64,000 nt of DNA from a virus. Every line of letters starts with the position of its first letter. Position 1 is the stretch's first letter. The stretch spans positions 1 through 64,000 of IMG/VR virus record IMGVR_UViG_3300044259_000094. The stretch is one strand, 5' to 3'. This document shows, piece after piece, positions 816 to 49,501 of this stretch. The position numbers and the translations under genes were made by a program. The notes under the pieces were generated by a model. The model was not told the origin of the DNA, did not search any database, and saw only the letters and a list, made by a program, of their open reading frames with translations.

Positions 816-850
816 ATTCTACGAGCTTTTAGAGAGGGTGTGATTGGCTG
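816..850 (-). promoter_or_regulatory. phage promoter motif (13-nt spacer variant)
   Basis: CAGCCA ATCA CACCCT N13 TAGAAT. Confidence 0.65.
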
Positions 851-870
851 CCAAATGACAGCCAATACAC

Positions 871-1299
871 TCAGATGGACTCTTGCCGATGGGCGCAGAG
901 CTTGACCACACGTTGGCACAGATCAGCATCGAACCAGCTGATGTGACAGCGCCAACGCTCGATGTCGAGTTTGTAAGCGAGCCACTTGTAGGCTTCACCA
1001 CGAGACATCTGCTTTGACTTCCAGATAGGATCGAACGCAGCATGTGCGGCTTTACGAGCAGTTTTGGTCTTCTCGTCAGCCAATGTACCTAACGGATGAG
1101 TGGTGCCGGCATGTACACCGACAGAAGCACCACAAGCCTTATTGGTACACAGGTAGATATAGGGCCAATCGCTGAAAGTCCGGCCGTTGTAAATCTCGGC
1201 GTGAGTCGTGTATTTGACCTCACTGCCGCAGAACCGACACTTTGTAGGAGCCTGCATGATGCTGCGTGGGTCTATCGACTTCTCGACGGACTTGACCAT
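871..1299 (-). CDS. DUF3268-family zinc-finger protein
   Basis: CRFCG...YLC..CGASVGVH.GT..PLGTLAD...AHAAFDPIWK...AYKWLA...CHI.WFD signature. Confidence 0.8.
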   Translation of the reverse strand: MVKSVEKSIDPRSIMQAPTKCRFCGSEVKYTTHAEIYNGRTFSDWPYIYLCTNKACGASVGVHAGTTHPLGTLADEKTKTARKAAHAAFDPIWKSKQMSRGEAYKWLAYKLDIERWRCHISWFDADLCQRVVKLCAHRQESI

Positions 1300-1463
1300 T
1301 ACTCTTCACGCTCAGGCAAACGAACCAGTACACCAATCAGTTCCTGAATGTAGTGATCGGTGCACTGGTCGTACTCTTCGCTTTGGATCGAACCAGGCAT
1401 AGCCTGGAGCGACTGTATGAAAGCCTGCAGCTGTTCTTCGGTGATAACCCGGACCTTAGCCAT
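1299..1463 (-). CDS. small hypothetical protein (54 aa, MAKVRVITEEQL...), not in ORF track
   Basis: Translated by hand; fills the gap exactly with TGATG and TAATG coupling at its ends. Confidence 0.7.
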   Translation of the reverse strand: MAKVRVITEEQLQAFIQSLQAMPGSIQSEEYDQCTDHYIQELIGVLVRLPEREE

Positions 1464-1786
1464 CAGTCGACCTCCTCGTCAGTGAGCAGAATGGCATCAC
1501 CCACGATCACATCACCGATGAACAGGCTATCAGCGGCCAGGCGAGTAGCAACGGCGTTGAATTTCAGGCCGCTGAACTTACCTTCTTCGTTCATACCCAT
1601 GATGCGATAGGTCTGCTGATCCAGAATCACCGGCTTCTTCAAGCGGATGATCTGAATCGGGCCACCCACCAGCTCTTGCATGGCTTTGAGGTGCATACCG
1701 CGATCACCTTCACCCTTGAAGTATTGCGGGTGAGTTTGGATGTTGATCAGAGTGGACTGATCGTTGGTCTTGATATGAACGGCCAT
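1463..1786 (-). CDS. DUF3846-like protein
   Basis: LKAMQELVGGPIQ...MNEEGK...L.FN..AT...IVGDAIL motif. Confidence 0.7.
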   Translation of the reverse strand: MAVHIKTNDQSTLINIQTHPQYFKGEGDRGMHLKAMQELVGGPIQIIRLKKPVILDQQTYRIMGMNEEGKFSGLKFNAVATRLAADSLFIGDVIVGDAILLTDEEVD

Positions 1787-1793
1787 GTGAACC

Positions 1794-1907
1794 TCAGTTG
1801 AATTGGAAGGAACCGCAGGCGAGCATGAAGCCCAGGATGACCAGGAGGATCAAGATGATCGCAAGACCCGGGTCTTTCTCGATGGTGTTGAAGATACGGT
1901 TGATCAT
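1794..1907 (-). CDS. small membrane protein (37 aa, MINRIFNTIEKDPGLAIILILLVILGFMLACGSFQFN), not in ORF track
   Basis: ATGA overlap with upstream stop; one hydrophobic helix. Confidence 0.65.
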   Translation of the reverse strand: MINRIFNTIEKDPGLAIILILLVILGFMLACGSFQFN

Positions 1908-2620
1908 GCGTCGAGGCTCTCTTGTACCTGACTGCGGTCTTCAACAAACGGCTCAACGTTCCGCTTGTGCATGTACTCCTGACCTTCTTCGAGTGGCCAT
2001 TCGACTTCGTGACCACAAGCGCCGTTGGAGCACAGCTTCTTGTCCTCGCTGCGCAGCGGGATCATTTCAGAACCACACTTGATGCAGTTCTTGGTGCTAC
2101 GGAAGCGGTTGAGGAACTTCTCGGCTTCTTTGAAAGCCTGGCCGTCGTCAGCTTTCAGCATGTCGCCGATACGATCAAGAGCCGCTTCGAGGTCTTGACG
2201 AACCATCACATGGCATTCGCTGGCACGAACACGGGCGTCAACGTGTTCTTCGATGGTGAGGGACAGCGCATCGAATTCTTCGGTTTTGCGGGTCAGAGCG
2301 TCACGCAGACCGTCATTGCGGCTGATCTGATAGCCAAGATTTTCACGACCCTCTTGGACTTGCTTGAGCAGGTCATTGATAACGGTCTTGTCGATGTTAG
2401 CCTGATCGCGCAGCTCGATTTCACGGTCAACGGCACGATGAACGTCTTTGACCGCCGCACACATCCAGGGACTATCGTCGGACAGACGTTGCTCGCCGGC
2501 AGACATCCGAGTGTTGCACTGCGCAGCCACGCTGATAGCAACCAGAGCCATCTCTTTCGCTTCCAGCTCAGCGTTGAAGCCGAACAGGTCGCCAATCTTA
2601 CGCTTGATGAAACGCTTCAT
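1904..2620 (-). CDS. coiled-coil protein with C-terminal zinc ribbon
   Basis: Start moved to MKRFIK (ATGA overlap at 2617-2620); CIKC...CSNGAC near C-terminus. Confidence 0.7.
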   Translation of the reverse strand: MKRFIKRKIGDLFGFNAELEAKEMALVAISVAAQCNTRMSAGEQRLSDDSPWMCAAVKDVHRAVDREIELRDQANIDKTVINDLLKQVQEGRENLGYQISRNDGLRDALTRKTEEFDALSLTIEEHVDARVRASECHVMVRQDLEAALDRIGDMLKADDGQAFKEAEKFLNRFRSTKNCIKCGSEMIPLRSEDKKLCSNGACGHEVEWPLEEGQEYMHKRNVEPFVEDRSQVQESLDA

Positions 2621-2808
2621 ACCCATGCTCCCATTGTCTGACGATTTTGAACCTGGAGTTCGACCAGCATGGCCTCTTCCAGTTCTTGTTTTTCCGCAAG
2701 GGCTTCCTGCGGTGTATAGCCCAGTTGTTCGACCCGACCCCAAAGCAGAGCACAAAGCTCTGCCCTGGCGATGTCGGTCAGCCTTTCTTCAAACCTTGTC
2801 CCGACCAT
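2617..2808 (-). CDS. hypothetical protein ending in MGAWV tag
   Basis: GAGGAG SD; translationally coupled to the next gene. Confidence 0.65.
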   Translation of the reverse strand: MVGTRFEERLTDIARAELCALLWGRVEQLGYTPQEALAEKQELEEAMLVELQVQNRQTMGAWV

Positions 2809-3229: not shown

Positions 3230-3840
3230 CAGTCCTCCGTCAGCTCAGCATAGGTGTTCTGGCCTTTCTTGACGAACTTGAATCGAGCCTTGATACCCTT
3301 TTCCAGAGTACCTGCGATGAACTCCGGCTTCGCTACGCCGTCGATGATGCCCTGGATCAGACCGTCGATGCCGGATGGGCCGAATTCGATGGTTTGACCG
3401 TTACTGGCTTCGAACTGCATGGTCACGGAGCTGCGGCCGCGAGTGTAGCCAGTGAACTTGAGGATATCTTCGAACACCGGGACGTAATCGAACGCTACGA
3501 TCTGCTGGCGAACCTCGTCCTTCTCCCACTGTTGATGCGCGTAGACTTCGCGGTTGTACTTCTCGTAGGCAGCGTAGTCGTCCAGCTGCTGTTGAGTGAG
3601 CGGGGCGGCGTGAGCGGGGCGACCATGAGGATGGAACCCAGGCCATTTTACTTCCGGCCCAACTACAGGCTCCGGTTTAGCGTTCGCTTTGAGTTCGGCA
3701 ACCTTTTTGGTTACTTCATCGAAGCTACCATGCAGAGGCCAGTAGTCGTCATAGCCGACGTAGTAGTGACCGGTCTTGCTGTTTTGCATCAAGCACCAAG
3801 CTTTTGGCGCTTTACCCTTTGCCTTACCGACGATCTTCAC
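3229..3840 (-). CDS. hypothetical protein (203 aa)
   Basis: GAGG SD; downstream of promoter 3878-3911. Confidence 0.75.
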   Translation of the reverse strand: MKIVGKAKGKAPKAWCLMQNSKTGHYYVGYDDYWPLHGSFDEVTKKVAELKANAKPEPVVGPEVKWPGFHPHGRPAHAAPLTQQQLDDYAAYEKYNREVYAHQQWEKDEVRQQIVAFDYVPVFEDILKFTGYTRGRSSVTMQFEASNGQTIEFGPSGIDGLIQGIIDGVAKPEFIAGTLEKGIKARFKFVKKGQNTYAELTED

Positions 3841-3877
3841 AGGTGCTTCCTCTCGCTATGTTGTTGAATCTGCGCTG

Positions 3878-3911
3878 ATTTTACAGCGCAGATATAGGTG
3901 TTATTCGGCTG
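3878..3911 (-). promoter_or_regulatory. phage promoter motif, -10 in hairpin loop
   Basis: CAGCCG AATA ACACCT N12 TAAAAT; 10-bp inverted repeat 3868-3893 flanks the -10. Confidence 0.75.
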
Positions 3912-4650: not shown

Positions 4651-4665
4651 GGTGACACCTCTTGG

Positions 4666-5743: not shown

Positions 5744-5775
5744 GACTACGGCACTCCTGTTGTTTGCTTGCTTCG

Positions 5776-5809
5776 ATTTTACGCAAAGAGCAAAGGCATC
5801 ACATGGCGC
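5776..5809 (-). promoter_or_regulatory. phage promoter motif
   Basis: GCGCCA TGTG ATGCCT N12 TAAAAT. Confidence 0.75.
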
Positions 5810-6910: not shown

Positions 6911-7765
6911 TTACTCGGCTGCGTCTTCTTCGGTTTCTACAGGACCGGTAGTAGGACCAGGCTGGTTCAGCGAAGTCAGAAGTGGCAGCAGAGTAGAAGT
7001 GGGGTTCGGGATCAGACGACCGCCGGATTTGATCGCGATACCCAGAGCAGGCAGCAGATTCATCATCTGGGTAGTCTGGCTCGACGAAGTGCCTTCGCTG
7101 TATGGACGCGCCAAGAAGGCGTCTTTCAGCTGCTTGCTGGACATTTCGTCGTTCTGCACCAGGAAGTTGATCGCGATCCGGGTGTAGTTCGACAACGCAG
7201 CGCCTTTGGCGATGTGAGCGAACAGGTTGGTGGTCTTCTCACCGATCTTGATCGGCATCTTGTCGATGGTTTCGAGCAAGGCGATACGCTTGTCGAAGCG
7301 TTCCTCGTCGGACAGAGCCAGGTCTTTGGTGTCGATGGTCAGCAGTTCATCGAGCTTGTCGCCGAGAGCAGTAGCGAGGGCCACGCTCTTAGTCATGCCG
7401 ATGGTGCTGATGCGCTTGGTGATAGGCGCTTTCTTCTTTTGTACTGGCGCCGGCATCTGAGCCGTATCGGGAGCAGGTTCGGACTGCTCGTCCATTTCAG
7501 CGAGAGCCTGTTCTTTCAGCTCACCGATGTTTGCAGCATGGCCGGCTTCGAGCAGCTGGCTTTCAGTTGGCACTTCCAACGGTTTCTCTTGGAGACCGGC
7601 TACAACGATGCTGGAATCGCTACCAGCGTTAACGCCTGCTTCGAGGTCTGCGAACATATCGTCCAGCAGATCCAGCGTGTTTTCGTTACCCTGACCGCCG
7701 AGAACAATCTCCTCCTCGTTGTTAACTGGGAGTTCTTGTTCAACCTGTTGAAGTGCTACTGCCAT
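6911..7765 (-). CDS. protein with acidic disordered N-terminus and possible C-terminal winged-helix domain
   Basis: Own promoter and terminator; C-terminal helix-helix-wing pattern (MSSKQLKDAF...LLPALGIAIKSGGRLIP). Confidence 0.75.
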   Translation of the reverse strand: MAVALQQVEQELPVNNEEEIVLGGQGNENTLDLLDDMFADLEAGVNAGSDSSIVVAGLQEKPLEVPTESQLLEAGHAANIGELKEQALAEMDEQSEPAPDTAQMPAPVQKKKAPITKRISTIGMTKSVALATALGDKLDELLTIDTKDLALSDEERFDKRIALLETIDKMPIKIGEKTTNLFAHIAKGAALSNYTRIAINFLVQNDEMSSKQLKDAFLARPYSEGTSSSQTTQMMNLLPALGIAIKSGGRLIPNPTSTLLPLLTSLNQPGPTTGPVETEEDAAE

Positions 7766-7847
7766 GTCATCCACCTAATGATCTGAGTTGGTTATTCTTT
7801 AGGACGCTAAGCAAATCAACTACTTAGCGTCTCTTTGTGTTGCAGCG

Positions 7848-7881
7848 ATAATACACAGCAGTTTTAGGCATAGCGTGGCGA
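7848..7881 (-). promoter_or_regulatory. phage promoter motif
   Basis: TCGCCA CGCT ATGCCT N12 TATTAT; leader hairpin GACGCTAAG/CTTAGCGTC at 7803-7831. Confidence 0.7.
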
Positions 7882-9307: not shown

Positions 9308-9340
9308 GATGTGTGCTCTATGTTGTTGATATGTGCGCTG

Positions 9341-9374
9341 ATTTTACAGCGCACATTGAGGCAGGAGACGGCTG
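9341..9374 (-). promoter_or_regulatory. phage promoter motif, -10 in hairpin loop
   Basis: CAGCCG TCTC CTGCCT N12 TAAAAT; inverted repeat 9331-9356; near-duplicate of the 3878 element. Confidence 0.75.
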
Positions 9375-10406: not shown

Positions 10407-10440
10407 ATTATCGCAGTTACTCGTCGGTTTTCGGAGGCTG
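10407..10440 (-). promoter_or_regulatory. phage promoter motif
   Basis: CAGCCT CCGA AAACCG N12 GATAAT. Confidence 0.7.
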
Positions 10441-11074: not shown

Positions 11075-11484
11075 GCAAACGTACCCGCACCACGAAGCTC
11101 GTATTCAGCAATGCGAGCCTCAGCCTCATTTCGCAGCGCAGCTTTGACGCCGGCCGCTACCTTTTCCAGGGTTTCACGATCCATTGCCAGACCTTTACCT
11201 GCTGCACGCAGACTGGCATCGAACGAACCACCAAGCTTGTCAGCGCCGTTCAGGATCGCTTTCTCGATCAAGGTGTGCAGAAAGTCAGGCTTGTTGGTTA
11301 CTTCAAGCACAGCCTTCTCTACAGCCACAGTGATCATCGGTGCCACAGTGATCATCGAGTTGTTGATAGCCTGAGCAACGGCCGAAGTTATAGCTGGATT
11401 GTTTGCTGCGCAGGCTTTGATGGCATCTTCCACAGCTTTAGTGGCAGCGGCGTTGAGAAACGCCTGCTCGACAATGACACTCAT
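11071..11484 (-). CDS. Ala-rich helical protein ending in AGTFA tag
   Basis: Coupled ORF. Confidence 0.7.
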   Translation of the reverse strand: MSVIVEQAFLNAAATKAVEDAIKACAANNPAITSAVAQAINNSMITVAPMITVAVEKAVLEVTNKPDFLHTLIEKAILNGADKLGGSFDASLRAAGKGLAMDRETLEKVAAGVKAALRNEAEARIAEYELRGAGTFA

Positions 11485-11828
11485 TAGTCAACATCCAGGC
11501 CAGTGGTTTTTAGGCGCATGTACAGAGCATCAACCTGAGCCTGGCTGCAACCCTTAACGTGGGTGTATTCGCGAGAGAACGGACCAACTGCCGGATCTTC
11601 CAGCAGATCGCCTTTACGAAGCGCAGACAGCAGGTACAGGCCGGAGGTCATCAGCTCGATGTCGATTGGCGTGAATTCTTTCAGTGCCGGCGACAGTGCG
11701 CGCTTAACAGCGGCTACAGAGCAGTTGACCATTTCGGCAATTTCTTCGTAGGAGAGACCCGCGAGGATACCTTTCTCGATACGGGACTTGGTTGCATCGC
11801 TTACTGGGCGGCCTTTTTTGGTAGTCAT
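11484..11828 (-). CDS. helix-turn-helix protein
   Basis: GRP...GLSYEEIAEMVNCSVAAVKRAL. Confidence 0.7.
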   Translation of the reverse strand: MTTKKGRPVSDATKSRIEKGILAGLSYEEIAEMVNCSVAAVKRALSPALKEFTPIDIELMTSGLYLLSALRKGDLLEDPAVGPFSREYTHVKGCSQAQVDALYMRLKTTGLDVD

Positions 11829-12640: not shown

Positions 12641-12688
12641 ACAGACTGCTCTATTGCTAGAGACAGTCTGTCAGTTTTACGCAGGGAT
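12641..12688 (-). promoter_or_regulatory. partial phage promoter motif with hairpin
   Basis: Distal ATCCCT present, proximal CC absent; TAGCAAT in loop of the ACAGACTG/CAGTCTGT hairpin. Confidence 0.4.
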
Positions 12689-13302
12689 TAGACGGAGTGT
12701 TTCATGCGCTCAGTGAGGATATTGTTCACATACTGGGCGCGACCACCTAACGGATAGCCGTAAATCTTGTAGCAGTGAACCTGGTGGCTGGACATCAGAC
12801 CTTGCATGATGAAGTCAAAATGCAGGTTGTACGACGGACTGGTCTGAGCGCACACCTTGCCATCTTCTTCACGCTTCCACTCTTTGGGTGGGAACGGTGG
12901 CAAGTGGAAGATGCAATCGAACATCAACCCGGCACACTGACAATCCATGACGTACTGGACGATCCGCTTGTTCTGCTTCTCGGTCAACTCACCATAACCA
13001 CTCACCTCAGCCAGCATGAAGGCAATAAAGCAGTAAGGTGTCCGGTCAGTCAGGACGTACTCTTTATCCTGATTGTTGCCGATCGCCTCAGCCCACTGCA
13101 TTTTCAGCTCTTTGAGAATCACCTCTTGTACGTCGAGGCGTTCATCAATCGTCATGGCGACTTTCGGGTCTTTGCCCATGCGCTTGTAGATTTCAGAGAC
13201 AGTGGTCTTTACGAAGGCCACGTTCTCCGCATCCTCAAACTGCTTGCACAGGGTAGTCTTGCCACTACCCGATACACCCACAAAACCTACTAGCTTGGTC
13301 AT
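12688..13302 (-). CDS. P-loop dNMP/nucleoside kinase-like protein
   Basis: GVSGSGKTT Walker A, LTDRT motif; in nucleotide metabolism cluster. Confidence 0.75.
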   Translation of the reverse strand: MTKLVGFVGVSGSGKTTLCKQFEDAENVAFVKTTVSEIYKRMGKDPKVAMTIDERLDVQEVILKELKMQWAEAIGNNQDKEYVLTDRTPYCFIAFMLAEVSGYGELTEKQNKRIVQYVMDCQCAGLMFDCIFHLPPFPPKEWKREEDGKVCAQTSPSYNLHFDFIMQGLMSSHQVHCYKIYGYPLGGRAQYVNNILTERMKHSV

Positions 13303-16204: not shown

Positions 16205-16238
16205 AGAATGCGCGATTTTGTAAGGGAGTAGTCGGGCT
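16205..16238 (-). promoter_or_regulatory. phage promoter motif
   Basis: AGCCCG ACTA CTCCCT N12 CATTCT. Confidence 0.6.
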
Positions 16239-16302: not shown

Positions 16303-16327
16303 AAAAAGCCCGACTTACGCCGGGCTT
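16303..16327 (-). terminator. intrinsic terminator after nrdB
   Basis: AAGCCCG...CGGGCTT followed by TTT. Confidence 0.75.
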
Positions 16328-16342
16328 CTGGTCAGCTAGCTG

Positions 16343-19413: not shown

Positions 19414-19456
19414 GCAATGCTCTCTTTTGTGTGTGATACAACGAACTAGAGCGCTA

Positions 19457-19490
19457 ATAGTAGCGCTCTAGTCGAGGGATTAGCTGGGGT
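19457..19490 (-). promoter_or_regulatory. phage promoter motif, -10 at hairpin apex
   Basis: ACCCCA GCTA ATCCCT N12 TACTAT; 12-bp perfect inverted repeat 19445-19472. Confidence 0.75.
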
Positions 19491-21792: not shown

Positions 21793-21840
21793 TTACATGA
21801 TGTAGTGGGTACAATGAGCTGCACACACAACTCATTGTAT
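21793..21840 (-). promoter_or_regulatory. putative tandem NrdR boxes
   Basis: ATACAATGAGTTGTGT (21840-21825) and CCACTACATCATGTAA (21808-21793), 32 bp apart, resembling acaCwAtATaTwGtg. Confidence 0.45.
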
Positions 21841-21867
21841 CTAGAGGGCGTCGAGTATAGACGGGGT
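21834..21867 (-). promoter_or_regulatory. phage promoter motif (proximal CC degenerate)
   Basis: ACCCCG TCTA TACTCG N12 TACAAT. Confidence 0.65.
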
Positions 21868-22428: not shown

Positions 22429-22955
22429 GCTACTTCCTTCCAGTGCTTGCCTGTCGCCGCGTTGATGATCGTTCTCCGATCGACACCGTACTTGGCAGCA
22501 AGCTTGTTGATGACCTTGCGATCCCAACCTTTGGCGTAGGCTGCACGAATGATGCGCACCTTAGCCGGGTTGAGCTTCGCACTTCTGATGCGAACACCGA
22601 ACACTATACGCCCGTGCAGTCGCTTGTCAGCCTCGTTCTCTTTCTTGGTTGCCCATTTCAGATTGAGCAACCAGTTGTTCACGCTGTTGCCGTCGATGTG
22701 ACAGCCAACGTGATCAGAGGAAGGGCGAGGGCCGGCGAACGCTTCGAGCACCAGAAGGTGAACACGAACCTTACGGCCGACACCGTGATCGTCTTCCATG
22801 TAGACGCGCATGTAGGTGATGTTTTTGTACTTCTCGGCGTACAGCTTGATGATGTACGGCTTGCCAGTACGGTTGGAACGAATCCGGCCGTACTGTGACA
22901 CCTCATACCGAGTGTAACCCGGGATGACTTTCCATACCTCAGACACTAGGTTCAT
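22425..22955 (-). CDS. NUMOD4-HNH homing endonuclease
   Basis: EVWKVIPGY..YEVSQYGRIRS; VHLLVLEAF.G...CHIDGN..NN...NLKW.T..EN. Confidence 0.9.
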   Translation of the reverse strand: MNLVSEVWKVIPGYTRYEVSQYGRIRSNRTGKPYIIKLYAEKYKNITYMRVYMEDDHGVGRKVRVHLLVLEAFAGPRPSSDHVGCHIDGNSVNNWLLNLKWATKKENEADKRLHGRIVFGVRIRSAKLNPAKVRIIRAAYAKGWDRKVINKLAAKYGVDRRTIINAATGKHWKEVA

Positions 22956-27575: not shown

Positions 27576-27609
27576 AGCTTACATAATGACGAAAGGGACA
27601 GCGTGGGGT
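27576..27609 (-). promoter_or_regulatory. phage promoter motif
   Basis: ACCCCA CGCT GTCCCT N12 TAAGCT. Confidence 0.7.
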
Positions 27610-27625
27610 TCACGACTGTCCCTTT
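27592..27625. terminator. possible bidirectional terminator hairpin overlapping the promoter upstream elements
   Basis: AAAGGGACAG...CTGTCCCTTT. Confidence 0.55.
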
Positions 27626-31055: not shown

Positions 31056-31224
31056 TTTTACATCCTCAGTTTATATAGCGATATGTCGAAAAGGTTTTAT
31101 GTCGATCATTGCAGGTTGTTCATCAGAGAACAGGTCACTTGGGCTTCGAACCTGAGCTGCTGCTCTCTGATGTTGTTGATTCTACGCAGTCACTCGAAAC
31201 GAGTCTACAGGTAGAAGTGAGGCA

Positions 31225-31740
31225 TCAATCGCAGCTCGAAGAACCGGAATCGGAGCTGCAAGAACTGGACGACGAGCTGCTGGACGATGACGAGCAGCTA
31301 CCACCGCTGTAGCTCGGGCTGGAGTCATACGATGAAGAACGCGACGAGCTGCCGCAGTCATCCCAGGATGAACCAGAACGAGAAGAGGACGAAGGGGCCG
31401 GCGTGCTGTGAATCGGGTTCAGCGGACTGATTGGATTCGACGGGTTGACCAGAGAGTCGTCACTACGACTTTGGCTCGACGTTGCGCTACGGCTACTGGT
31501 TACAGATGGGCCAGACCCACTTGTTGAGCGCAAACGGTCGCGCTCACGGCGTTCACGTTCCAGTCGACGATTACGGTCTTCGCGCGTCTGCTCGGCCTGT
31601 TTCATGCTTTTCAGGTCAGAGCGGGCTTCATCACGTTGACGGAGCGCACGACGGCGCCCCGCTTCGAGGATGATAGCCACGCCGGTTACTGTTGCGAGGG
31701 CAATACCCGACGCAATTTCACTCAGTGTGGTTTCGATCAT
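31225..31740 (-). CDS. membrane-anchored protein with Ser-rich low-complexity tail
   Basis: N-terminal TM helix, poly-Ser C-terminus. Confidence 0.7.
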   Translation of the reverse strand: MIETTLSEIASGIALATVTGVAIILEAGRRRALRQRDEARSDLKSMKQAEQTREDRNRRLERERRERDRLRSTSGSGPSVTSSRSATSSQSRSDDSLVNPSNPISPLNPIHSTPAPSSSSRSGSSWDDCGSSSRSSSYDSSPSYSGGSCSSSSSSSSSSSCSSDSGSSSCD

Positions 31741-31958
31741 TGCTGGTTCTCCAGATTGCATACACGCTCGTGCAGAGCGTTGTCGGCCGCATTAACGACC
31801 GAAGAAAGGGTCGCAACAGAGGTATTCAGCGAGTCGATGCTGACCTTGAAACGACTGTTCTCGGCCTTGAGCGATTCGATTGCCGCGTGCAGCTTGATTT
31901 GCTGCCCGGCGAGCCAAATGACCGATATGGCAATAGCGATGACAAGCAGTGTAGCCAT
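31737..31958 (-). CDS. small membrane-anchored coiled-coil protein
   Basis: N-terminal TM helix; coupled at both ends. Confidence 0.65.
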   Translation of the reverse strand: MATLLVIAIAISVIWLAGQQIKLHAAIESLKAENSRFKVSIDSLNTSVATLSSVVNAADNALHERVCNLENQQ

Positions 31959-33166
31959 TACTTGCTCTCCAGTTGGGACAGAGCGCGCTCGCCGGCATGT
32001 TCTTTCATGCGAAGTTCACCCTGCTTCTCCAGGCGAAGGTCTGCACCTACCTGAATCAGCATGTCCTTACGGTGACGGAAGCTGTCCGCCGCAGATGCAA
32101 CCATCGAGGCGATTGCTTTCGCTTCGTGGGCACGTTCTTGTGCAGCTTGGTAGCTGCTGTCCTGGATGACCAGCGCGTCGATGGACTTCTCGGTGAACTT
32201 GGTACCGGATGCAATCATCGCATCGCGGAACTTCTGGTTCAGCTGCGCTTCCAGAAGGTCGACTTGCTGCTTGGCACGGTCGGACTGATAGGTAGCATCG
32301 GCCGACAGGCGAGCGTAGTGGGCAAACAGCGCCGCTTGACGGGTCATGCCGTCGTTGATGGTTGCTTCGGTGAAGTGCAGGTCACGCTGCAACTGATCGG
32401 CGTCGATGAAGGTGTTCAGAGCACCGGCTTTACGACCGGCTGCACCGACCGGAGTTACAGCTACCGGCTTGCTTGGTGCGGAAACGACTGGCGCTGGAGC
32501 AGGTTCAACTTCGACGGTAGCGAGCAGAGCTGCCAGCTCGTCTTCATCGGACTTCGCAGAGCCGCTGTTGATCACCCGCTCGGCCGTCTCGACAGTTTCG
32601 ACCAGCTCAGCCAGCTCGGCGTCGGTTACGTCTTCGACAGTGCGGGGCTTTGCTTCGTCAGGCTCGAACGGCTTGTCAGCCAGCTTGTCATGCTCTTGCT
32701 TGCGGACCAGGAGACCCAGCATCTGCTGATGCACCGAGTCGATGTCGGACGTATCGTCGATCTGGGCGATGACAGGCGCTACCACATTGGTAACCAATTC
32801 TTCGGTCATGGCGAACTTGATTGCCAGCGAGCCGATCAGGTCGATCACTTCGACAGCGAAGGCTTCGAGTTCGGCCGCGTTCATCGCTGCCTTCGAAGTT
32901 GCAGGTGCAACAACTGGCGCCGAGTCCAGATCTTCCAGACCGGCCAGGTCATCTTCGGTTACGACTGCTTGAACCGCCGGCGCTTGAGTAGCGACAGGCT
33001 CGTCGAAGTCTTTCAGCGGCTTGAGGTTACGCTTGCGAACAGGCTTTGCAGAAGCTGGTGCTGCAGCTACAGGCGCATCCAGTTCTTCGAGTGCCGCAAG
33101 GTCGTCGTTGTCCAAGCCGGCGAGCATCGCTTCCAGCTCGTCAATGTCGTTCACTTCTTTTGCCAT
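31958..33166 (-). CDS. acidic N-terminal region plus UvsY-like recombination mediator domain
   Basis: C-terminal DL......Q..L...Y......KFTEKSI...V..D..Y.....F.HRKDML helical pattern; next to ssb/recA; start moved to MAKEVN. Confidence 0.6.
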   Translation of the reverse strand: MAKEVNDIDELEAMLAGLDNDDLAALEELDAPVAAAPASAKPVRKRNLKPLKDFDEPVATQAPAVQAVVTEDDLAGLEDLDSAPVVAPATSKAAMNAAELEAFAVEVIDLIGSLAIKFAMTEELVTNVVAPVIAQIDDTSDIDSVHQQMLGLLVRKQEHDKLADKPFEPDEAKPRTVEDVTDAELAELVETVETAERVINSGSAKSDEDELAALLATVEVEPAPAPVVSAPSKPVAVTPVGAAGRKAGALNTFIDADQLQRDLHFTEATINDGMTRQAALFAHYARLSADATYQSDRAKQQVDLLEAQLNQKFRDAMIASGTKFTEKSIDALVIQDSSYQAAQERAHEAKAIASMVASAADSFRHRKDMLIQVGADLRLEKQGELRMKEHAGERALSQLESK

Positions 33167-33205
33167 TTGGGTTGTCTCGCTGTTTATGTGAGTGAGTCGA
33201 GCGCT

Positions 33206-33239
33206 ATTAAAGCACTCGCTCACAGGGTTTACGCGGGGT
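33206..33239 (-). promoter_or_regulatory. phage promoter motif, -10 in hairpin loop
   Basis: ACCCCG CGTA AACCCT N12 TTTAAT; imperfect inverted repeat around the -10. Confidence 0.7.
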
Positions 33240-33242
33240 TTG

Positions 33243-36200
33243 TTAGCTGAAAATGTCAGCTACCTGCTGAAACACTTGGTCGAGCAGGGCTTGTTTGGAC
33301 CCGTCGAAGCAAATCATAGCCGGGTTGAAGCCGGATACAACCGTGCAGTCGGACTTTGGATCGAAGAAGGACTTGCCACAGTTGTCCTCCCAGCCACCCT
33401 TGATATCCGGGACGAGCTGTCTTACAGATTTGCTACCCAGAGCTACGATCACCGGTGGTTTCAGAAGGGCAATCTCCCGCTCAAGGAACTTGCCACAACC
33501 GTTCGCAGTGACGTTGGTAATCTCCTCGTCTTTCAGCTTGCGGGCTTTGATGTAGCTGGTCACATAGACTTCGGACATCTTGAGACCTGCTTTGGTCAGG
33601 GACGCCTTGATGAAGTTCGCGGTGTCACCCACCATCATCTGACCCTTCTCTTCCTCTTTGTAGGATGGGCCATCCACGACGATCATGACTTTGGGTTTCT
33701 TACCCAGGACTGGTTGAGGGTGGTTGCGACCAATGAACGGACACCCGTCACAACCCTTGTAGGTCTGGTAGTCCTCAACGATCTGAACCAGCTCAGCACT
33801 CACAGCGCCGGTGACATCGATCACCCGTTCGGCTTTGACGTTGCTAACCACAATCCCGGGTAGCAGCTCCTTCTGGTCACGCAACCGATCTGGGTGACGG
33901 CTATCAAGTTGCCCGGGTTCGATCTTGCTGAATGCACCGATCTTGTCGAGTTTCTCCTGTGCGGTCTTGTTGCACGCACGACGGTCGACCTCAAGAATCA
34001 TTTCGGCCTTGTTCTTGAAACCACGACCAAGCTTCTTGCGTGCAGCCAGAATAGCTGCGGCCGACTTCTCAGACAGACCCTTCACAGACTGGAACGGTGC
34101 ATAGAGGATCTTCTGACCCCGTGCGCTATCGAAACCAATCTCATAGCGGTCAGAGCTATGGTTGATATCAGGAGGGACGATGTAGATGTCACTGGCTTGA
34201 GCGTCTTTGGCAAGACCAGGCAGCTTCTGCTCATCCAGAATCGACAGACAGGCTGCATAGAACGCTTCTGGGTAGTACACCTTCACCCACATGGTCATGT
34301 AGCTGATCAGGGTGTACGCCACAGAGTGAGACTTGTTGAAGCCATAGCCGGCGAACTTCTCGATCTGCTCGAAGATGAAGGTCGCGGTCGCATGATCCAG
34401 CCCGGACGTAGCGATACAGCCGTCAACGAACTTGTCGCGTTGCTCAGCCATCTTCACCGGGTCTTTCTTACCCATGATCTTTCGCAGGCCGTCTGCTTCT
34501 GGGAAGGTGTAACCCGCAAGGTCACGGGAAATCTGCATGACCTGTTCCTGATAGACCATGACGGACATCGTAGGCTCAAGCGCAGCTTTCATGTTCGGGT
34601 GAAGATACTCGGGTTCCTGGAACTCCTTCTTGATGGCGACGTACATTTCCATCAGACCCGCTTGCATTGGACCCGGGCGATACAGAGCTGTTGCGGCTAC
34701 ACAGTCCTCGAATGTCAACGTACCGGTTGATCCAAGCTCCTTGAGAAGCTTCCGCATACCGCCGGATTCAAACTGGAATACGCCGTAGGTCTTAGCCTCT
34801 GCGAACGCCTGCAAAACCTTCTTGTCATCAAGAGGCAACCTGGTGAAGTCTACAGACACGCCAGAGCTTTCGTGGATGTAGTCTTTGCAGAGACGGAGAA
34901 TGTCCAAGTTGGACAGACCCAGTACGTCGAGCTTGATCAAGCCAAAGTCTTCCACGACCCGCTTGTCCCAGTTGACGATACCCACACCTTGTCTGTTGTT
35001 GACTACGCCACGATGGACGATCTTGTCGCCGGCTACAACGACACCAGCTGCGTGCTTGGCAAAGTTCTTGAACGTACCTTGCAGACCCACAGACGTTGCC
35101 CAGACTTGAGGATGGTTGAGCGCAAGCTTCTCAAGCTCCGGGACATACGCGACCGCTTTCTCAAGCGGAACAGGTACACCAGATTCTTTGGGCACCAGCT
35201 TGGAACAATCGTACTCGCTCTCATGCAGGCCATACGCTTTGCCCACCGCTTGAATCGCACCAGCGCCAGCAAGGGTGTTGTAGTTGGCGATCTGGACAAC
35301 GTGATCGTTGCCGAACTTGCTTACAAGGTGGTCAACGATATCCTGGCGTCGGCTGGACATGAAGTCCAAGTCAACGTCTGGCAAGTCGATACGTTCCGGG
35401 TTGATGAAACGTTCGAAAATCAGGTTGAAGCGGATCGGGTCAACGTCAGTGATGCCCATGAGATACGCGACAAGGCTACCGCCGACAGAACCACGACCCG
35501 GGCCTACCATGATTTCGTTTGTCTTCGACCAGTTCACGACATAGTGAACCAACTGGAAGTAGGCTTCGAACTTCATCTTCTGGAGGATGGACAGCTCGTA
35601 CTTGAGACGGTCTTGATACTTCGGCAGATCAGCAGACGCCGGCTTGTAGCCGAAGACTTCCGTACCCAGGCGATCCTTCCAGCCTTGCTTACAGATGGCT
35701 ACGATATCTGCCATTGGTGTAGCGGACATCGTAGGGAGACTGGGCTCAAGTTTCTTCCATTGGTACGGATGATCCTTGAAGTAGTCGTTGGTCTTCGCCA
35801 AAGCATCGTTGAGCCACTCAGTAACGTTGTCACCGTCGGCTCCGTCATCCACGCGATTGCAGATCCGGTCGACAGTCTTCGCTACTTGGTCGAGCCACTC
35901 AGCTTGCTCCAAGACATAGAGGTCTTCTGGAGGTTCACGCCGCCACATGCTGTCTGCTTTGTCGTGGGACAGGATCGAGTTCATCGTCGACCGGAAGCTG
36001 GACTCGCCTTTCTGATTGAGGGTCGGTCGAGTGACGATAGCTTTGATGCCCCGTTCCTCGAATGCTTTGTAGCTCTGCGCATTGTGCGCGTCGTAATACA
36101 TTGAGTTGACTGGGACGACTTCTGCGAGCACTTGTGACACGTCCAAATGATCGCACAGCATGTCTAGTAACTTATCTTTGTCTCGCAGCGTAAACGCGCT

Positions 36201-36643: not shown

Positions 36644-37069
36644 TCAGTACCTTAGTAAGATCCTTCCACCTTCCACACTGGCAAGGTTGTTTGTTAACAG
36701 CACACCGACGGTTTCTTTTGCCGTCTGCACAGCCTCATCCTTTTGCCATTTCAGCTTTTGCATGAGGGTTTGAACGAGAACACCCGGCGTGGGGCTCTCC
36801 AACGTCATCAGAATCCCAACAGCTTTTTGCTGTCGAGAGTTCATTGTAGCGACGATGCGCTCGGTAGAGTCAGGTAGTCGCTTCTGTGCCTTCTGTGACG
36901 CGCTGTGAGACATTTTCAGCACCGAGTCGACGCTCACCATTGCTCTGAGTTCCTCGATGCGCTGTAGCGCTGCCAGAGCGCATGACTGGCTCTCGTCACA
37001 CTTGGCACATGCAGGCGACTTGTTGCTGTAGGTGATGGCGTTGCCGTAGCAACCGGGTTTGTCGTACAT
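36644..37069 (-). CDS. Cys-rich N-terminus plus possible winged-helix protein
   Basis: PGCYG...CAKC...C; AGGAG SD. Confidence 0.7.
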   Translation of the reverse strand: MYDKPGCYGNAITYSNKSPACAKCDESQSCALAALQRIEELRAMVSVDSVLKMSHSASQKAQKRLPDSTERIVATMNSRQQKAVGILMTLESPTPGVLVQTLMQKLKWQKDEAVQTAKETVGVLLTNNLASVEGGRILLRY

Positions 37070-38386: not shown

Positions 38387-38442
38387 AGGTTGTATCCTTG
38401 TTTACGTTAATTTGTACTGCGTTGTTTTGTTTCAGTGAGCGC

Positions 38443-38476
38443 ATTTTGTACGCTCACTGATGGGCGTTCAATGGGT
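38443..38476 (-). promoter_or_regulatory. phage promoter motif, -10 in hairpin loop
   Basis: ACCCAT TGAA CGCCCA N12 CAAAAT; 10-bp inverted repeat 38432-38460. Confidence 0.65.
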
Positions 38477-40594: not shown

Positions 40595-40628
40595 ATTATG
40601 CAGAAATGAAACTGGGAGCTTTCGGCTC
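40595..40628 (-). promoter_or_regulatory. phage promoter motif overlapping a terminator hairpin
   Basis: GAGCCG AAAG CTCCCA N12 CATAAT. Confidence 0.7.
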
Positions 40629-40633
40629 CCAGT
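40604..40633 (-). terminator. intrinsic terminator after ligase
   Basis: ACTGGGAGC-CGAAA-GCTCCCAGT followed by TTCATTT. Confidence 0.7.
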
Positions 40634-42723: not shown

Positions 42724-42755
42724 TGGGAGACTCTCTCGTTTGTTGTCGCGCTTGC

Positions 42756-42789
42756 ATGATACAAGCGCGCTGGAGGGCTTATACGGCGT
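42756..42789 (-). promoter_or_regulatory. phage promoter motif, -10 in hairpin loop
   Basis: ACGCCG TATA AGCCCT N12 TATCAT; CGCGCTTG/CAAGCGCG inverted repeat. Confidence 0.75.
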
Positions 42790-43565: not shown

Positions 43566-43590
43566 GTGATCTGCCTATGAATGTGCGCTT

Positions 43591-44697
43591 TCAAAGTGTG
43601 AATTTTGACATCACAGATGCGGCATAGAGCGGGGTAAGCTCTTTAGCCTTTACGAATGCCTGTCGTACTACTTCGGTTTCTACTTCGTTGGGGTCTTTGT
43701 CCAACGGCAGGATTGCCAGCTTTACTTTGAACCCGAAGGTTCTCAGCTTAACGCCGGTCTTCACAGCGTTCAGGATTGCACTGGGTGATCCGTCCCACAT
43801 CATGGTGATTTCACGGAGACCCTTCTCTCGCATCGCTTTGAGGTCGCTAAGCTGATCCTTCTCACCGCCAGACTCGGCGATAGAAAGGTGCATACCGAAT
43901 GTCCCGCAGATACCCACATCCTTGAAGGTGATGTCCTCGTCGAACGCCTTCTTGATTGCGGCTACGTCAAACACGCCCTCCCCCAAAACAAGCTCTGACA
44001 ATCCTAGGGAATTGTGGGCGTTGTATATAAAACGACCAGCTCCAGCTAACCCAGGTGGGAACAGGTACTTCTGGAATGGGTTTGCTTCTATGCTTCGACC
44101 CTGGAACGTAACGAGCTGTCCGTCGATGCCATATACAGGAATGACAACTCGGTTTGCCCAGTCCTGAGACTTCTCTTCGCCGCCTAACGTGTAGCTGTAG
44201 GTTCCGGTCTTGCTGAATCGCCAACCAAAATACTCGGCAAGGTCAGGGCCAAACCCACGATCAGAAAGGTACTTGAGAGTTTTGCCGTTGATTGGCAGAG
44301 GGTAGCTGTCCGGGATCACAATTTCATCCGGGTTCTCGTCAGCTGGTCTTGGGGCGCGTTTGCGGGTTGCTGTCCACCCAAGAGTCTTGGCGTATCGCTT
44401 GAGATTCTGGATCGTCTCGCGATGGCTCTTGTCGTTACGGTGGAACATATAGCTGTACTTGTTGAAGCCTGGCTCACCTGAGCATGACCCATGAAAGCAA
44501 CTACCCAAACCTGTCTCAGCGTTTAGGTAGACCTTCCAGCCAGTACCCCCACAACGGGGGCACTCTTTAAGGTTCAACTGTGTACCGGATCGCCCGCGAG
44601 TGACCCGGTAGTCGATGCTTTCAAAGCTCAGGAAGTCTTCCATGTCGACCAGATCGAGCAGGTCTTCAATCTCGGAATCATCCTTTGCTTTGGTCAT
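43591..44697 (-). CDS. DNA primase (zinc finger plus TOPRIM)
   Basis: CPRC...CFHGSC, FQGR, EGVFD, MMWDG, KDPNE. Confidence 0.88.
   Translation of the reverse strand: MTKAKDDSEIEDLLDLVDMEDFLSFESIDYRVTRGRSGTQLNLKECPRCGGTGWKVYLNAETGLGSCFHGSCSGEPGFNKYSYMFHRNDKSHRETIQNLKRYAKTLGWTATRKRAPRPADENPDEIVIPDSYPLPINGKTLKYLSDRGFGPDLAEYFGWRFSKTGTYSYTLGGEEKSQDWANRVVIPVYGIDGQLVTFQGRSIEANPFQKYLFPPGLAGAGRFIYNAHNSLGLSELVLGEGVFDVAAIKKAFDEDITFKDVGICGTFGMHLSIAESGGEKDQLSDLKAMREKGLREITMMWDGSPSAILNAVKTGVKLRTFGFKVKLAILPLDKDPNEVETEVVRQAFVKAKELTPLYAASVMSKFTL
43602..43635 (-). promoter_or_regulatory. phage promoter motif inside the primase 3' end
   Basis: ACCCCG CTCT ATGCCG N12 CAAAAT. Confidence 0.65.
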
Positions 44698-44698
44698 G

Positions 44699-44956: not shown

Positions 44957-44959
44957 GAC

Positions 44960-46611: not shown

Positions 46612-46646
46612 TACGTTTCCTCTATGAATGAAAAGACTCAAGCGCG

Positions 46647-46680
46647 AGATTACACGCTTGAGTCTGGGGTGTAGCGGGTT
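46647..46680 (-). promoter_or_regulatory. phage promoter motif, -10 in hairpin loop
   Basis: AACCCG CTAC ACCCCA N12 TAATCT; 11-bp inverted repeat AGACTCAAGCG/CGCTTGAGTCT. Confidence 0.75.
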
Positions 46681-46683
46681 TGA

Positions 46684-47088: not shown

Positions 47089-48560
47089 TAGCTAATCTCC
47101 AAGATGCCAGTCATGAACCGCATCTTGCTCAAGTCCTGGCTGATTTTGAGGGTGAATTCACCAGCTTGGTTCCGGGATGCTGCGAAGTAAAGGCGAGCTT
47201 CACCTTTGGCCTTCTCTTCATCCGTGCGGTTGATGGTCAACACCAAGTCGGCGATGCGGATTTTGTTGAAGTCTTCTGCGGCGTGCTCTGCTTTCGCTAC
47301 GTCAGCAGTGAAGCCGGCACGGTTCGTCTGTGTTGCGGTCAGTACAGCGGCGTTCTCTTCGTGGGCGATTGCACGCAGACCCAACCAGACCTGCTTGGAC
47401 TCGTTGATGTCGTTACCCGATTTGATTTCGGCCGCCATGATGTCGGCGTAGTCGACTACGATCAGGTCGAAGATGATGCCTTGTGCGCGGTAGAACTCGA
47501 TGACTTTGCGCAGGTCTGCACAGGTCATTGTACCCGATGGATACTCAACGACTTTCAAGACGCCAGGCTTACGCATGGATGCCCGATTCTTGACGCCCTT
47601 CTCGACTTCGTTACCCTTGGCTGCCAAGTCAGCCATATCAACGCCGGACACGTTTGCGTCCATACGTTCCATGATGATCTTGGCTGCTACTTCGAGGGTG
47701 ACATACAGCACGTTGTAGCCGGCGCTAGAAGAAGCGATTGCCCAGTGAAGCAAGCCAGTGGACTTACCCTTCTTGGCACCACCCATGACAACGGACAGTT
47801 CCTTTCGGCCCCATCCATCGTGGTACAGCATCTTGTTCAGTTTCGGCAGACCCGTGGTCACACCGTCTTTCTTAATCAGACCGGCTTCAACGTCACGACG
47901 GTACTGAGTACGGGACTCGATGCTGTTCCAGTAGTCGTTGTCTTGAACCACAGCCTGCGCGCCTGTAGCAAACGCCTTCTGCATGATTTTTTCGGCTTTC
48001 GCATGTTCTCCCTTCTCCACAAGCGGGATGGTCATCATGTAAGCCGCGCTGATTGCTTGCTTCTTGGCGAACTCAGCAACCTTATCTACAGCGTAGTCAC
48101 GGCTCGGCAGACCCTCTTTCAGGATTTTCTTGAGAGCGACGACCATATCCGGGACGTCATCGTCACGAATCGCCTTCTCTGCTTTCGCATCCTTGATCAG
48201 CTCTGCCCACTCGCCGCGCTCGGGTAGACGACGGTACTTCTCATGATAGGTTTGGCTGATGTGAACCAGTGCCGACAGACTGCGGTCTTCGAAGTATTCA
48301 GGTTTGACCAACCCGTCTACGCGACGATAGAAAGCTTCATCGCGTAGGGTCAGTGCCGCGATCTTCTGTTGGAAGTCTGCTTCGAATTGGAAAGCCTCAG
48401 CACCCTCTTCCAGGGTTGGGAGCGGCTTGATCCGGGTGCTCATTTGCATGACGGTTTCGATTTCGTCATCCAATTCTTCGTCTGGCTCGGGTTCGACCAT
48501 GCCCATCTGTCTCGCCAATTGATCGGCGAGACTATTCTTAATTTCGGATTCGTCAGACAT
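47088..48560 (-). CDS. DnaB-like (SF4) replicative helicase
   Basis: GGAKKGKS, YVTLE, IVVDYAD, TATQTNR; start moved to MSDESE. Confidence 0.9.
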   Translation of the reverse strand: MSDESEIKNSLADQLARQMGMVEPEPDEELDDEIETVMQMSTRIKPLPTLEEGAEAFQFEADFQQKIAALTLRDEAFYRRVDGLVKPEYFEDRSLSALVHISQTYHEKYRRLPERGEWAELIKDAKAEKAIRDDDVPDMVVALKKILKEGLPSRDYAVDKVAEFAKKQAISAAYMMTIPLVEKGEHAKAEKIMQKAFATGAQAVVQDNDYWNSIESRTQYRRDVEAGLIKKDGVTTGLPKLNKMLYHDGWGRKELSVVMGGAKKGKSTGLLHWAIASSSAGYNVLYVTLEVAAKIIMERMDANVSGVDMADLAAKGNEVEKGVKNRASMRKPGVLKVVEYPSGTMTCADLRKVIEFYRAQGIIFDLIVVDYADIMAAEIKSGNDINESKQVWLGLRAIAHEENAAVLTATQTNRAGFTADVAKAEHAAEDFNKIRIADLVLTINRTDEEKAKGEARLYFAASRNQAGEFTLKISQDLSKMRFMTGILEIS

Positions 48561-48600
48561 TGTTGGCCCTTTGGGGTGATTTGTGCGTTGCAGCACTCGA

Positions 48601-48634
48601 AGTATACGCGCTGCGAAGTGGGGTAAAACTAGCT
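48601..48634 (-). promoter_or_regulatory. phage promoter motif (distal CC absent)
   Basis: ACCCCA N12 TATACT. Confidence 0.6.
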
Positions 48635-49345
48635 AGACAGAGCTACCGCACGGCGAATCAGATCACTACCGGATCGAGGGAAGGCGAACATGATTTGTTC
48701 GCGGGAGATTTGACCCTTCTCCATGATGGTCGCGAGCACACCTTCCGGGTAGCTTGAGCCTTTGATCCTGTTGAACAGCCAGTTCAGATACTTGATCTGC
48801 TCCTGCCCACCCTGATAGTTCTCTGCCAGATACGCTTCGTGGGCTGCGTAGAACGCGCTGTGAGACGTCCGGGCTACCCAGCGCTCTACGACATACTCGA
48901 CAAGCGATGGCAGCCCTTTAAGACGCTCAGGGACGGTCTGGGTGTACATCTGCGACGTAGTGGGCAAGAAAGTCATGCGAGCTTTGTCGGCAAACTGCAT
49001 CGCGTGCTCGCAATAGAAGTCATAAGGGCAACCGATGCGATCTGCCATCTGACGACCACGCCATAGGCCGTTGAGAGCGCGGGCTGGCAATTCGAAGATG
49101 ACGTCCTTTTTGAGGCCCTTCATGTTCAGACCGATCCACAGATCAGTACGCCGGGACACTGCACGTTTCAGAGCGGACGCATAAGCCTCAGCGTAAGCCT
49201 GGGTAGCTTGAGCCGGGTGCATGAAACGGTAGTCCCAGAATTTGGTTTCGTTTAGCTCAGCCTCTTCCTGGAGAAGGTTGAGAGGAATGTACCGGAGTGA
49301 CAGTGCGTCACATTGGAGTGGGGTCCATTCTGCGCTGTTAACCAT
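48629..49345 (-). CDS. hypothetical protein upstream of helicase (possible initiator or loader)
   Basis: TKFWDYRFMHP...GLWRGRQMAD.IGCPYDFY; start uncertain (ATG 49345 chosen). Confidence 0.7.
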   Translation of the reverse strand: MVNSAEWTPLQCDALSLRYIPLNLLQEEAELNETKFWDYRFMHPAQATQAYAEAYASALKRAVSRRTDLWIGLNMKGLKKDVIFELPARALNGLWRGRQMADRIGCPYDFYCEHAMQFADKARMTFLPTTSQMYTQTVPERLKGLPSLVEYVVERWVARTSHSAFYAAHEAYLAENYQGGQEQIKYLNWLFNRIKGSSYPEGVLATIMEKGQISREQIMFAFPRSGSDLIRRAVALSS

Positions 49346-49424
49346 GATGGGTAGCTCTGTGCGTTGCTGAGCTGTGAATGATGAAGCGAGGAGACCGGGT
49401 TTGCAAGAAGGTGGGTCAGTGTGT

Positions 49425-49498
49425 CCACATCCAACCCTTCCCTTATATAAGACTTCTAACAAGAAGAATTGTATTAAATAGGGAAGGGTAGGATGTGG
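49425..49498. repeat. long inverted repeat enclosing an AT-rich core
   Basis: CCACATCCAACCCTTCCCT (49425-49443) / AGGGAAGGGTAGGATGTGG (49480-49498), 18 of 19 pairs. Confidence 0.85.
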
Positions 49499-49501
49499 CT
49501 G
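49468..49501 (-). promoter_or_regulatory. phage promoter motif
   Basis: CAGCCA CATC CTACCC N12 TACAAT. Confidence 0.7.

Follow-up and report, generated by a model that had tools for sequence, protein, structure and literature searches.

Paired CC boxes 10 bp apart accompany putative promoters throughout the non-structural genes of a Nickievirus-like Pseudomonas phage

We analysed a 64,000-nucleotide stretch of viral DNA (hereafter the window), positions 1 to 64,000 of the IMG/VR record IMGVR_UViG_3300044259_000094, for a repeated intergenic element in which two CC dinucleotides precede a hexamer resembling the -10 element of sigma70 promoters. The record as a whole spans 95.7 kb and was judged 85% complete, and the window shares approximately 79% DNA identity with the Pseudomonas syringae phages nickie, phiK7B1, ZY21 and Nican01 (genus Nickievirus, ~112 kb). 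Essentially all genes of the window lie on the minus strand. From 49.5 down to 0.8 kb, the gene run encodes PhoH, a helicase, a primase, a ligase, CobT/S, DnaE, SSB, RecA, an SbcCD-like nuclease, RuvC, NrdAB, ThyA and many small proteins, in the same order as that annotated in nickie.

An earlier note on this stretch had listed 14 exact and five near copies of the element on the minus strand, distributed over nearly every intergenic gap of this run. At each of the 14 exact sites we found CC-N8-CC-N13-hexamer in the minus strand at the position given, and the five near copies (816, 12653, 21834, 38443 and 48601) are genuine near matches (Table 1). At 12653, the motif is present, whereas the hexamer originally assigned to it is doubtful; CAGACT at 12665-12670 fits the pattern exactly and is kept in four relatives. 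By our own gap list, the stretch from 0.8 to 49.5 kb has ~23 true intergenic gaps, of which 18 contain the motif. Four of the motif-free gaps (37.1, 30.2, 14.0 and 6.9 kb) contain only terminators, and the fifth (31.2 kb) holds a variant without CC boxes. This variant lies in a 169-nt gap (31056-31224), where TAGAAT is followed by the usual CA-rich leader and a further inverted repeat is found, with no obvious gene start nearby.

With the strict pattern CC-N8-CC-N13-TAnnnT, we obtained 10 matches in the window, compared with 3.2 ± 1.6 in 100 dinucleotide shuffles, none of which reached 10; nine of the ten are on the minus (coding) strand, all intergenic. In a scan of 120 spacing combinations, the pair (8,13) formed a sharp peak with 9 matches against a mean of 1.2, and its neighbouring cells were high only where runs of CCC account for them. 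At this spacing the antisense strand yielded one match and the structural module none. A weight matrix trained on two relatives only, with the window left out, recovered 13 sense matches and one antisense match above 12 bits, compared with 0.5 in shuffled sequences.

The hexamers of the 14 exact sites include TAAAAT three times (Table 1) and follow the sigma70-type -10 consensus position by position. Among 18 aligned sites, A occupies position 2 in 15 and T occupies position 6 in 16, with A usual at position 5. When the hexamer is set at -12 to -7, the boxes fall at -37/-36 and -27/-26, as had been proposed, so that a direct repeat with a 10-bp period brackets the -35 position. The boxes are often CCC, with half-sites of the form (A/T)AnCC(C) or TGCC. 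The distance from the hexamer to the next start codon is 21-57 nt, and C is preferred at the predicted -1 position. Since the motif is strand-specific, tied to gene starts, -10-like and located 21-57 nt before start codons, we read these elements as promoters, which probably serve the early and middle transcription units of this nickie-like phage, covering nearly all of its non-structural genes. The leaders of most CC-box promoters (e.g., 3841-3870, 9308-9335 and 42724-42750) are CA-rich (CAACAACA), and their ribosome-binding sites are of the GAGAG type rather than the GGAGG type.

Table 1. Putative CC-box promoters, hairpins overlapping them and candidate reader genes in the window. Scores in bits are from the weight matrix; dG, predicted folding energy of the hairpin; z, its z score.
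Feature	Positions	Strand	-10 hexamer	Match	Remarks
Putative CC-box promoter	49468-49498	minus	TACAAT	exact	whole promoter inside long hairpin 49426-49498
Putative promoter, before helicase gene	48601-48631	minus	TATACT	near; second CC box only	hairpin 48590-48614 brackets -10
Putative CC-box promoter	46647-46677	minus	TAATCT	exact; 19.1 bits	orthologues nickie 43745, G001 82427
Hairpin, 13 bp	46634-46665	minus			-10 in loop, then T run; dG -22.3, z -8.3
Putative CC-box promoter, within 3' end of primase gene	43602-43632	minus	CAAAAT	exact; 18.6 bits	kept in nickie, G001, L007; no hairpin
Putative CC-box promoter	42756-42786	minus	TATCAT	exact; 26.1 bits	orthologues in nickie, G001, L007
Hairpin, 10 bp	42747-42769	minus			around -10; dG -15.6, z -4.7; no T run
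Putative CC-box promoter, before cobT	40595-40625	minus	CATAAT	exact; 25.4 bits	both CC boxes in terminator-like hairpin 40611-40633
Intrinsic-terminator-like hairpin	40611-40633	minus			holds both CC boxes; T run; stem covaries in L007 (GGGGAC/GTCCCC)
Putative promoter, before cobS	38443-38473	minus	CAAAAT	near; at N14 or first box CA; 12.7 bits	orthologue nickie 52070
Hairpin, 12 bp	38432-38460	minus			around -10; dG -19.4, z -7.9; no T run
Putative CC-box promoter	33206-33236	minus	TTTAAT	exact	orthologue nickie 57391
Hairpin	33192-33223	minus			around -10; dG -21.1, z -6.3
Putative CC-box promoter	27576-27606	minus	TAAGCT	exact; 18.4 bits	CC boxes inside hairpin 27592-27625
Terminator-like hairpin	27592-27625	minus			over CC boxes; T run; read directly from sequence
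Putative promoter, before nrdA	21834-21864	minus	TACAAT	near; second box TC	-10 is start of hairpin 21810-21839
Putative CC-box promoter	19457-19487	minus	TACTAT	exact; 21.8 bits	orthologues nickie 71523, G001 1058
Hairpin, 13 bp	19444-19473	minus			around -10; dG -21.1, z -6.5; compensatory changes in nickie, G001
Putative CC-box promoter	16205-16235	minus	CATTCT	exact; 17.9 bits	intrinsic terminator 16304-16329 ~70 nt upstream
Putative CC-box promoter	12665-12695	minus	CAGACT (12665-12670; our reading)	exact pattern and weight matrix	CAGACT or TAGACT in nickie, G001, L028, L029
Hairpin	12641-12671	minus			T run starting within -10; kept in nickie, G001, L028, L029
Candidate reader (weaker), 114-aa protein	11484-11828	minus			sigma70 region-4-type helix-turn-helix; Pfam Sigma70_r4_2, 30.6 bits vs cut-off 25.7
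Putative CC-box promoter	10407-10437	minus	GATAAT	exact	orthologues nickie 81501, G001 9798
Putative CC-box promoter	9341-9371	minus	TAAAAT	exact; 27.1 bits
Hairpin, 10 bp	9331-9356	minus			loop TAAAAT; dG -17.6, z -7.7; no T run
Putative CC-box promoter, before 284-aa winged-helix gene	7848-7878	minus	TATTAT	exact; 20.4 bits
Candidate reader, 284-aa protein	6911-7765	minus			C-terminal winged helix; from AlphaFold model and conservation
Putative CC-box promoter	5776-5806	minus	TAAAAT	exact; 23.9 bits
Putative CC-box promoter	3878-3908	minus	TAAAAT	exact; 26.8 bits
Hairpin, 10 bp	3868-3893	minus			loop TAAAAT; dG -17.3, z -7.2; no T run
Putative promoter	816-847	minus	TAGAAT	near; N14	hairpin 843-866 covers first CC box

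For comparison, we used nickie, the complete 108-kb IMG/VR relative G001 (50% G+C) and three further contigs in which the motif is present (L007, L028 and L029). The same spacing peak was observed in nickie (15 versus 1.3) and in G001 (20 versus 2.3), in both on the coding strand only, and each genome holds ~20-28 putative CC-box promoters. In 12 orthologous triplets, all four C residues are invariant, compared with approximately 60% identity across N8 and N13 and 37-54% in the flanks; the first box reads CA in three nickie orthologues. In the complete relatives, small genes presumed to be early are preceded by the CC-box architecture as well (nickie 95-106 kb; G001 24-36 kb). Thus, the description of these elements as middle-type promoters was not borne out, and they appear to constitute a general promoter type of the non-structural genome. 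At CC promoters of such early-looking small genes in the complete relatives, the box TTGCAAGCGTT often stands directly before the -10.

A 12-bp box, TTGCAAGCG(T/C)TT, lies directly before the -10 of three to four CC-box promoters of small presumptive early genes and looks like an operator. It was found in L005 (nickie 100-112 kb) at 1398-1440, 2129, 3626-3660, 3961, 5891 and 8263, in G001 at 31193-33259, and, outside the window, in gaps of the same virus genome at 95049, 92675 and 88033. Read in reverse, this box provides a -35-like TTGCAa/c for a few sigma70-like promoters.

In more distant relatives, defined by ~41% identity of the ligase or 43-47% identity of the 284-aa protein encoded at 6911-7765, the CC motif is absent and other boxes are found instead, among them AAGTCA-N5-TGAC followed by TATAAT and ACTAACCGCTTAGTTA; some of these phages keep GATAAT in hairpin loops. 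In one such phage, IMGVR_UViG_3300012001_000006 (ligase 41% identical), TATAAT is preceded at ~15 intergenic sites by the palindrome AAGTCA-N5-TGAC(T), a different box in a similar position.

The motif could in principle be read by the host alone, with promoters that work in uninfected cells because the sigma70 holoenzyme tolerates the missing -35 or because a host activator binds the CC boxes. Such a reading would account for the motif before presumptive early genes, which are read prior to any phage protein, and for the near absence of canonical sigma70 promoters from the complete relatives, where only a few weak ones, with TTGCAa/c as -35, are found (nickie). Phage TLS offers a precedent, as it combines few sigma70 promoters with a repeated upstream box of unassigned function (PMC11447400). 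In a P. syringae genome (5.7 Mb), however, we found 7 strict matches compared with 11 for a reversed control, against 4-6 per ~100 kb in the phages, all on one strand; the motif is ~70-fold denser per strand in phage than in the P. syringae genome. The CC-box architecture is therefore not a common host one, and its rarity in the host genome makes it reasonable to suppose that the boxes have a dedicated reader. The other boxes of the distant relatives may likewise point to a reader that has changed along with the phage. There is, moreover, little to make up for the lack of a -35: only 3 of 14 sites have TG at -15/-14, and the CC-box sites have no AT-rich UP element, by which we rejected an extended -10 or an UP element as a substitute. 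On balance, reading by the host alone seems unlikely to us. The weak TTGCAa/c promoters could express an early factor.

Neither this genome nor nickie contains an intergenic match at 10 or more of 12 positions to the canonical sigma70 promoter, whose TTGACA-like -35 stands 16-18 bp before the -10; the N8 between the boxes shows no TTG, and no sigma54 or sigma32 pattern was found, in keeping with what the earlier note had reported. Two further candidates for the upstream element were rejected: CCGACA as a -35 with a 19-bp spacer, because the spacer is too long and the arrangement is not general across sites, and an ECF-type or HrpL hrp-box (GGAACC-N15/16-CCAC), because it disagrees with the observed spacings and gave no matches. 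Neither a sigma region 2 nor a T7-type polymerase was recovered by profile searches of this genome and of three complete relatives. The earlier statement that the phage has no visible sigma factor or RNA polymerase gene thus holds, with the single exception of the gene at 11484-11828, which has a sigma region-4-type helix-turn-helix only. Classical terminators consisting of a hairpin and a T run are present in other gaps. The presence of such terminators, together with the lack of a phage sigma region 2 or T7-type polymerase, indicates that the phage must use host polymerase.

One could still suppose that the promoters belong to a phage sigma factor or RNA polymerase too divergent for profile searches, given that the upstream element is conserved and phage-specific and that many ORFans are without a Pfam match. 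This we consider very improbable, as the -10 resembles that of sigma70 promoters instead of being a new word, the terminators are of the host type, and no protein is large enough except the tail fibre. The latter is encoded by an open reading frame at 52616-64000 that reaches 64654 in the genome; its product is a 4012-aa J-type central tail fibre with the domains Phage-tail_3, CBM_4_9 and Phage_Tail_Tip, approximately three times the length of the nickie J protein. An N4-type virion RNA polymerase, which the combination of an open reading frame of more than 3700 aa with hairpins had suggested, was rejected on the basis of this assignment.

At about half of the sites, a perfect, GC-rich palindrome of 8-13 bp (dG from -13 to -22, z down to -8) has the -10 hexamer as its loop, an overlay that the earlier note had not described. 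A T run follows the hairpin, as at intrinsic terminators, at 46634-46665, 40611-40633, 27592-27625 and 12641-12671, and is lacking at 3868-3893, 9331-9356, 38432-38460 and 42747-42769. The hairpin can be kept while the stem sequence changes, as seen between 38473 in this genome and nickie 52070, and between 19487 and its counterparts at nickie 71523 and G001 1058; column-anchored counts of compensatory changes are blurred by register shifts between orthologues. By contrast, a strong hairpin at the 7848 site is found in only one of three phages, and the promoters before small genes of nickie and G001 have none. What stays constant is that the hairpin begins 8-25 nt past the upstream stop codon, whereas its position relative to the promoter varies. 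The hairpin is not a fixed promoter part; we infer that it is a 3'-end element of the upstream gene that overlaps the promoter and may act in termination, pausing or stabilisation. The leader of the 284-aa winged-helix gene, at 73 nt unusually long, contains a second 12-bp hairpin (7803-7831) that is kept in G001 and may point to autoregulation of this gene.

These strong covarying hairpins at a set distance from stop codons, some followed by T runs, also invite the view that the element is no promoter at all and that UAnAAU-loop hairpins with a C-rich tract mark processing, termination or protein-binding sites on polycistronic transcripts. However, the boxes and the hexamer keep the same spacing with no hairpin at approximately half of the sites, among them every site before small genes in nickie and G001; the hairpin slides relative to the motif, and the hexamer matches the -10 consensus at each position. 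With neither a G.U bias in the stems nor an Rfam match, we judge a purely RNA-level element improbable. The G.U versus A.C bias was uninformative as a discriminator between RNA and DNA hairpins, since the stems are almost perfect palindromes.

The stems that have no T run and no G.U bias leave room for a role at the level of DNA, in which cruciforms present the -10 in single-stranded form or the palindromes are operators of a dimeric regulator recognising a GCGC core. The palindromes are indeed perfect in Watson-Crick terms with no strand bias, and the region from -15 to +21 around the -10 hexamers is 3.7-fold enriched in GCGC. AGCGCT is over-represented 2.2-2.5-fold genome-wide in this genome, nickie and G001. 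Yet the stem sequences differ widely between sites, their position relative to the -10 varies, and hairpins are gained and lost at orthologous promoters, so that we regard this possibility, too, as a poor bet.

Of the three genes that the earlier note had proposed for a factor, the one at 6911-7765 remains a candidate. In its AlphaFold model (pLDDT 84-94 for residues 121-260), a confident helical domain ends in a winged helix, with a helix-turn-helix and a beta wing, the predicted recognition helix spanning residues 224-240; a sequence search of the PDB gave no match, and Foldseek returned weak, generic winged-helix matches. The protein is 50-84% identical across the nickie group and is kept in all phages with CC boxes. 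The case for 11484-11828 is weakened, as its product diverges fast, with 36% identity in nickie, and was not found in G001, which has the motif. No helix-turn-helix evidence was obtained for 36644-37069. Pfam searches of eight small presumptive early proteins of nickie gave no matches, and phylogenetic profiling left too many conserved function-unassigned proteins to pick one.

Collectively, these observations lead us to favour, as the probable account, host-sigma70 promoters in which an accessory protein reads the CC boxes and assumes the role of the -35. In this mechanism, host RNA polymerase with sigma70 would read a normal -10 (TAnAAT) and start ~7 nt downstream, while the accessory protein would bind the two CC boxes, 10 bp apart, on one helix face and stand in for the usual contact between sigma region 4 and the -35. 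Each gap would have to accommodate a hairpin serving the gene upstream as well as a promoter serving the gene that follows, and in short gaps the two would overlap, such that the AT-rich -10 falls in the loop or the C-rich boxes fall in an arm of the stem. Initiation at the promoter would yield transcripts that lack the 5' arm and thereby escape the hairpin. The proposal of host polymerase plus a phage factor contacting one DNA face stands in its first half, with a sigma70-type -10, no -35, boxes on one face and no sigma factor or polymerase of the phage's own. The factor itself may come from the phage, the virion or the host; we think that the reader protein is phage-encoded or virion-delivered rather than a host protein.

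Several points weigh against this account. Promoter activity is predicted from the sequence, and the information per box is small, amounting to CC with weak flanks. The occurrence of CC boxes before presumptive early genes means that a phage-made factor would need another route for its first expression. Any candidate protein is tied to the boxes by co-occurrence only. Most hairpins around the -10 have no T run and are thus not standard terminators, and G.U does not outnumber A.C in the stems, so an RNA-level role can be ascribed to them only provisionally. A more specific proposal, which we offer tentatively and with more doubt than belief, is that a conserved nickie-group protein (best guess 6911-7765, or one delivered by the virion) reads the two CC half-sites and thereby substitutes for -35 recognition by sigma70 region 4 at almost all non-structural promoters. 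It would redirect the polymerase by sigma appropriation or class II activation with no relation to MotA/AsiA or CII, and the -10 hairpins would insulate neighbouring units.

The geometry of the CC boxes resembles that of lambda CII, PhoB or T4 MotA sites, where a box replaces the -35. T4 middle promoters likewise combine a sigma70-type -10 and no -35 with a phage-specific box ending ~12-13 bp upstream of the -10, and drive genes for replication and nucleotide metabolism. They differ in having a single 9-bp box (TGCTTtA) centred at -30 rather than two CC boxes 10 bp apart with no TGCTT. T4 also possesses early promoters of the canonical type, in contrast to the phages described here, in which presumptive early genes, too, are preceded by the CC-box motif. 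The MotA and AsiA profiles (PF09114 and PF09010) gave no match at E ≤ 1 in this 85%-complete genome. The CII-dependent promoters of lambda (pRE, pI and paQ), three promoters that serve the lysogeny decision, carry TTGC-N6-TTGC, two short boxes of 10-bp period that straddle a poor -35 and imply a protein on one helix face. Here, however, the box sequence is not TTGC, ~20-28 promoters are used per genome with no visible lysogeny genes, and a CII homologue (PF05269) is absent from the genome. The analogy to MotA/AsiA drawn in the earlier note thus survives as one of geometry, with no MotA, AsiA or CII homologue encoded.

Other phages offer parallels of genome-wide use. TLS is a siphophage without its own polymerase or sigma factor and with very few sigma70-like promoters, in which ~18 intergenic copies of an upstream box are oriented with transcription (PMC11447400). 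The 21-nt direct repeats of T1/TLS have a different and much longer consensus, aaATAGCACnnnTTGnTAAAA, no such word being found in our CC-box site alignments, and belong to another host and lineage. The Pseudomonas phages 14-1 and YuA, which have no polymerase of their own, use a second phage-specific motif that shows no activity in E. coli and is suspected to depend on a phage factor (PMC10914365). Their motifs are different (e.g., a CTGGG core near the start site in 14-1) and were mapped by ONT-cappable-seq, whereas the CC boxes are so far a sequence-based finding. The PeSL cassettes of T4-type phages join a stem-loop, a promoter and a Shine-Dalgarno sequence, the 'middle' version consisting of a Mot box and a -10 (PMC4122927); they have a near-canonical -35/-10 with the stem-loop just upstream of the promoter, whereas here the -35 is missing and the hairpin usually encloses the -10. 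The CC-box system is closest in working principle to T4 middle, lambda CII and PhoB-type promoters, and in genome-wide use to the TLS/T1 21-nt repeats and the 14-1/YuA motifs. The defining sequences or proteins of all compared families are absent here.

Elsewhere in the window, an open reading frame at 22429-22951, between the RuvC-like gene and its upstream neighbour, occupies the position of the HNH endonuclease annotated in nickie; a simple gene caller left this stretch as a gap.

Phages of the nickie group are reportedly under development against kiwifruit canker and cherry canker, and no promoter work is apparent in the titles or abstracts of the papers we found that mention the genus Nickievirus. 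A compact rule of two CC boxes, 13 bp and a -10 would explain ~20-28 transcription units per genome in these phages, and the overlap between hairpin and -10 would represent two signals sharing one short gap. The rule predicts a factor that redirects host polymerase, which, if found, would be a new example beside T4 MotA/AsiA and may provide phage-specific, infection-dependent promoters for Pseudomonas engineering.

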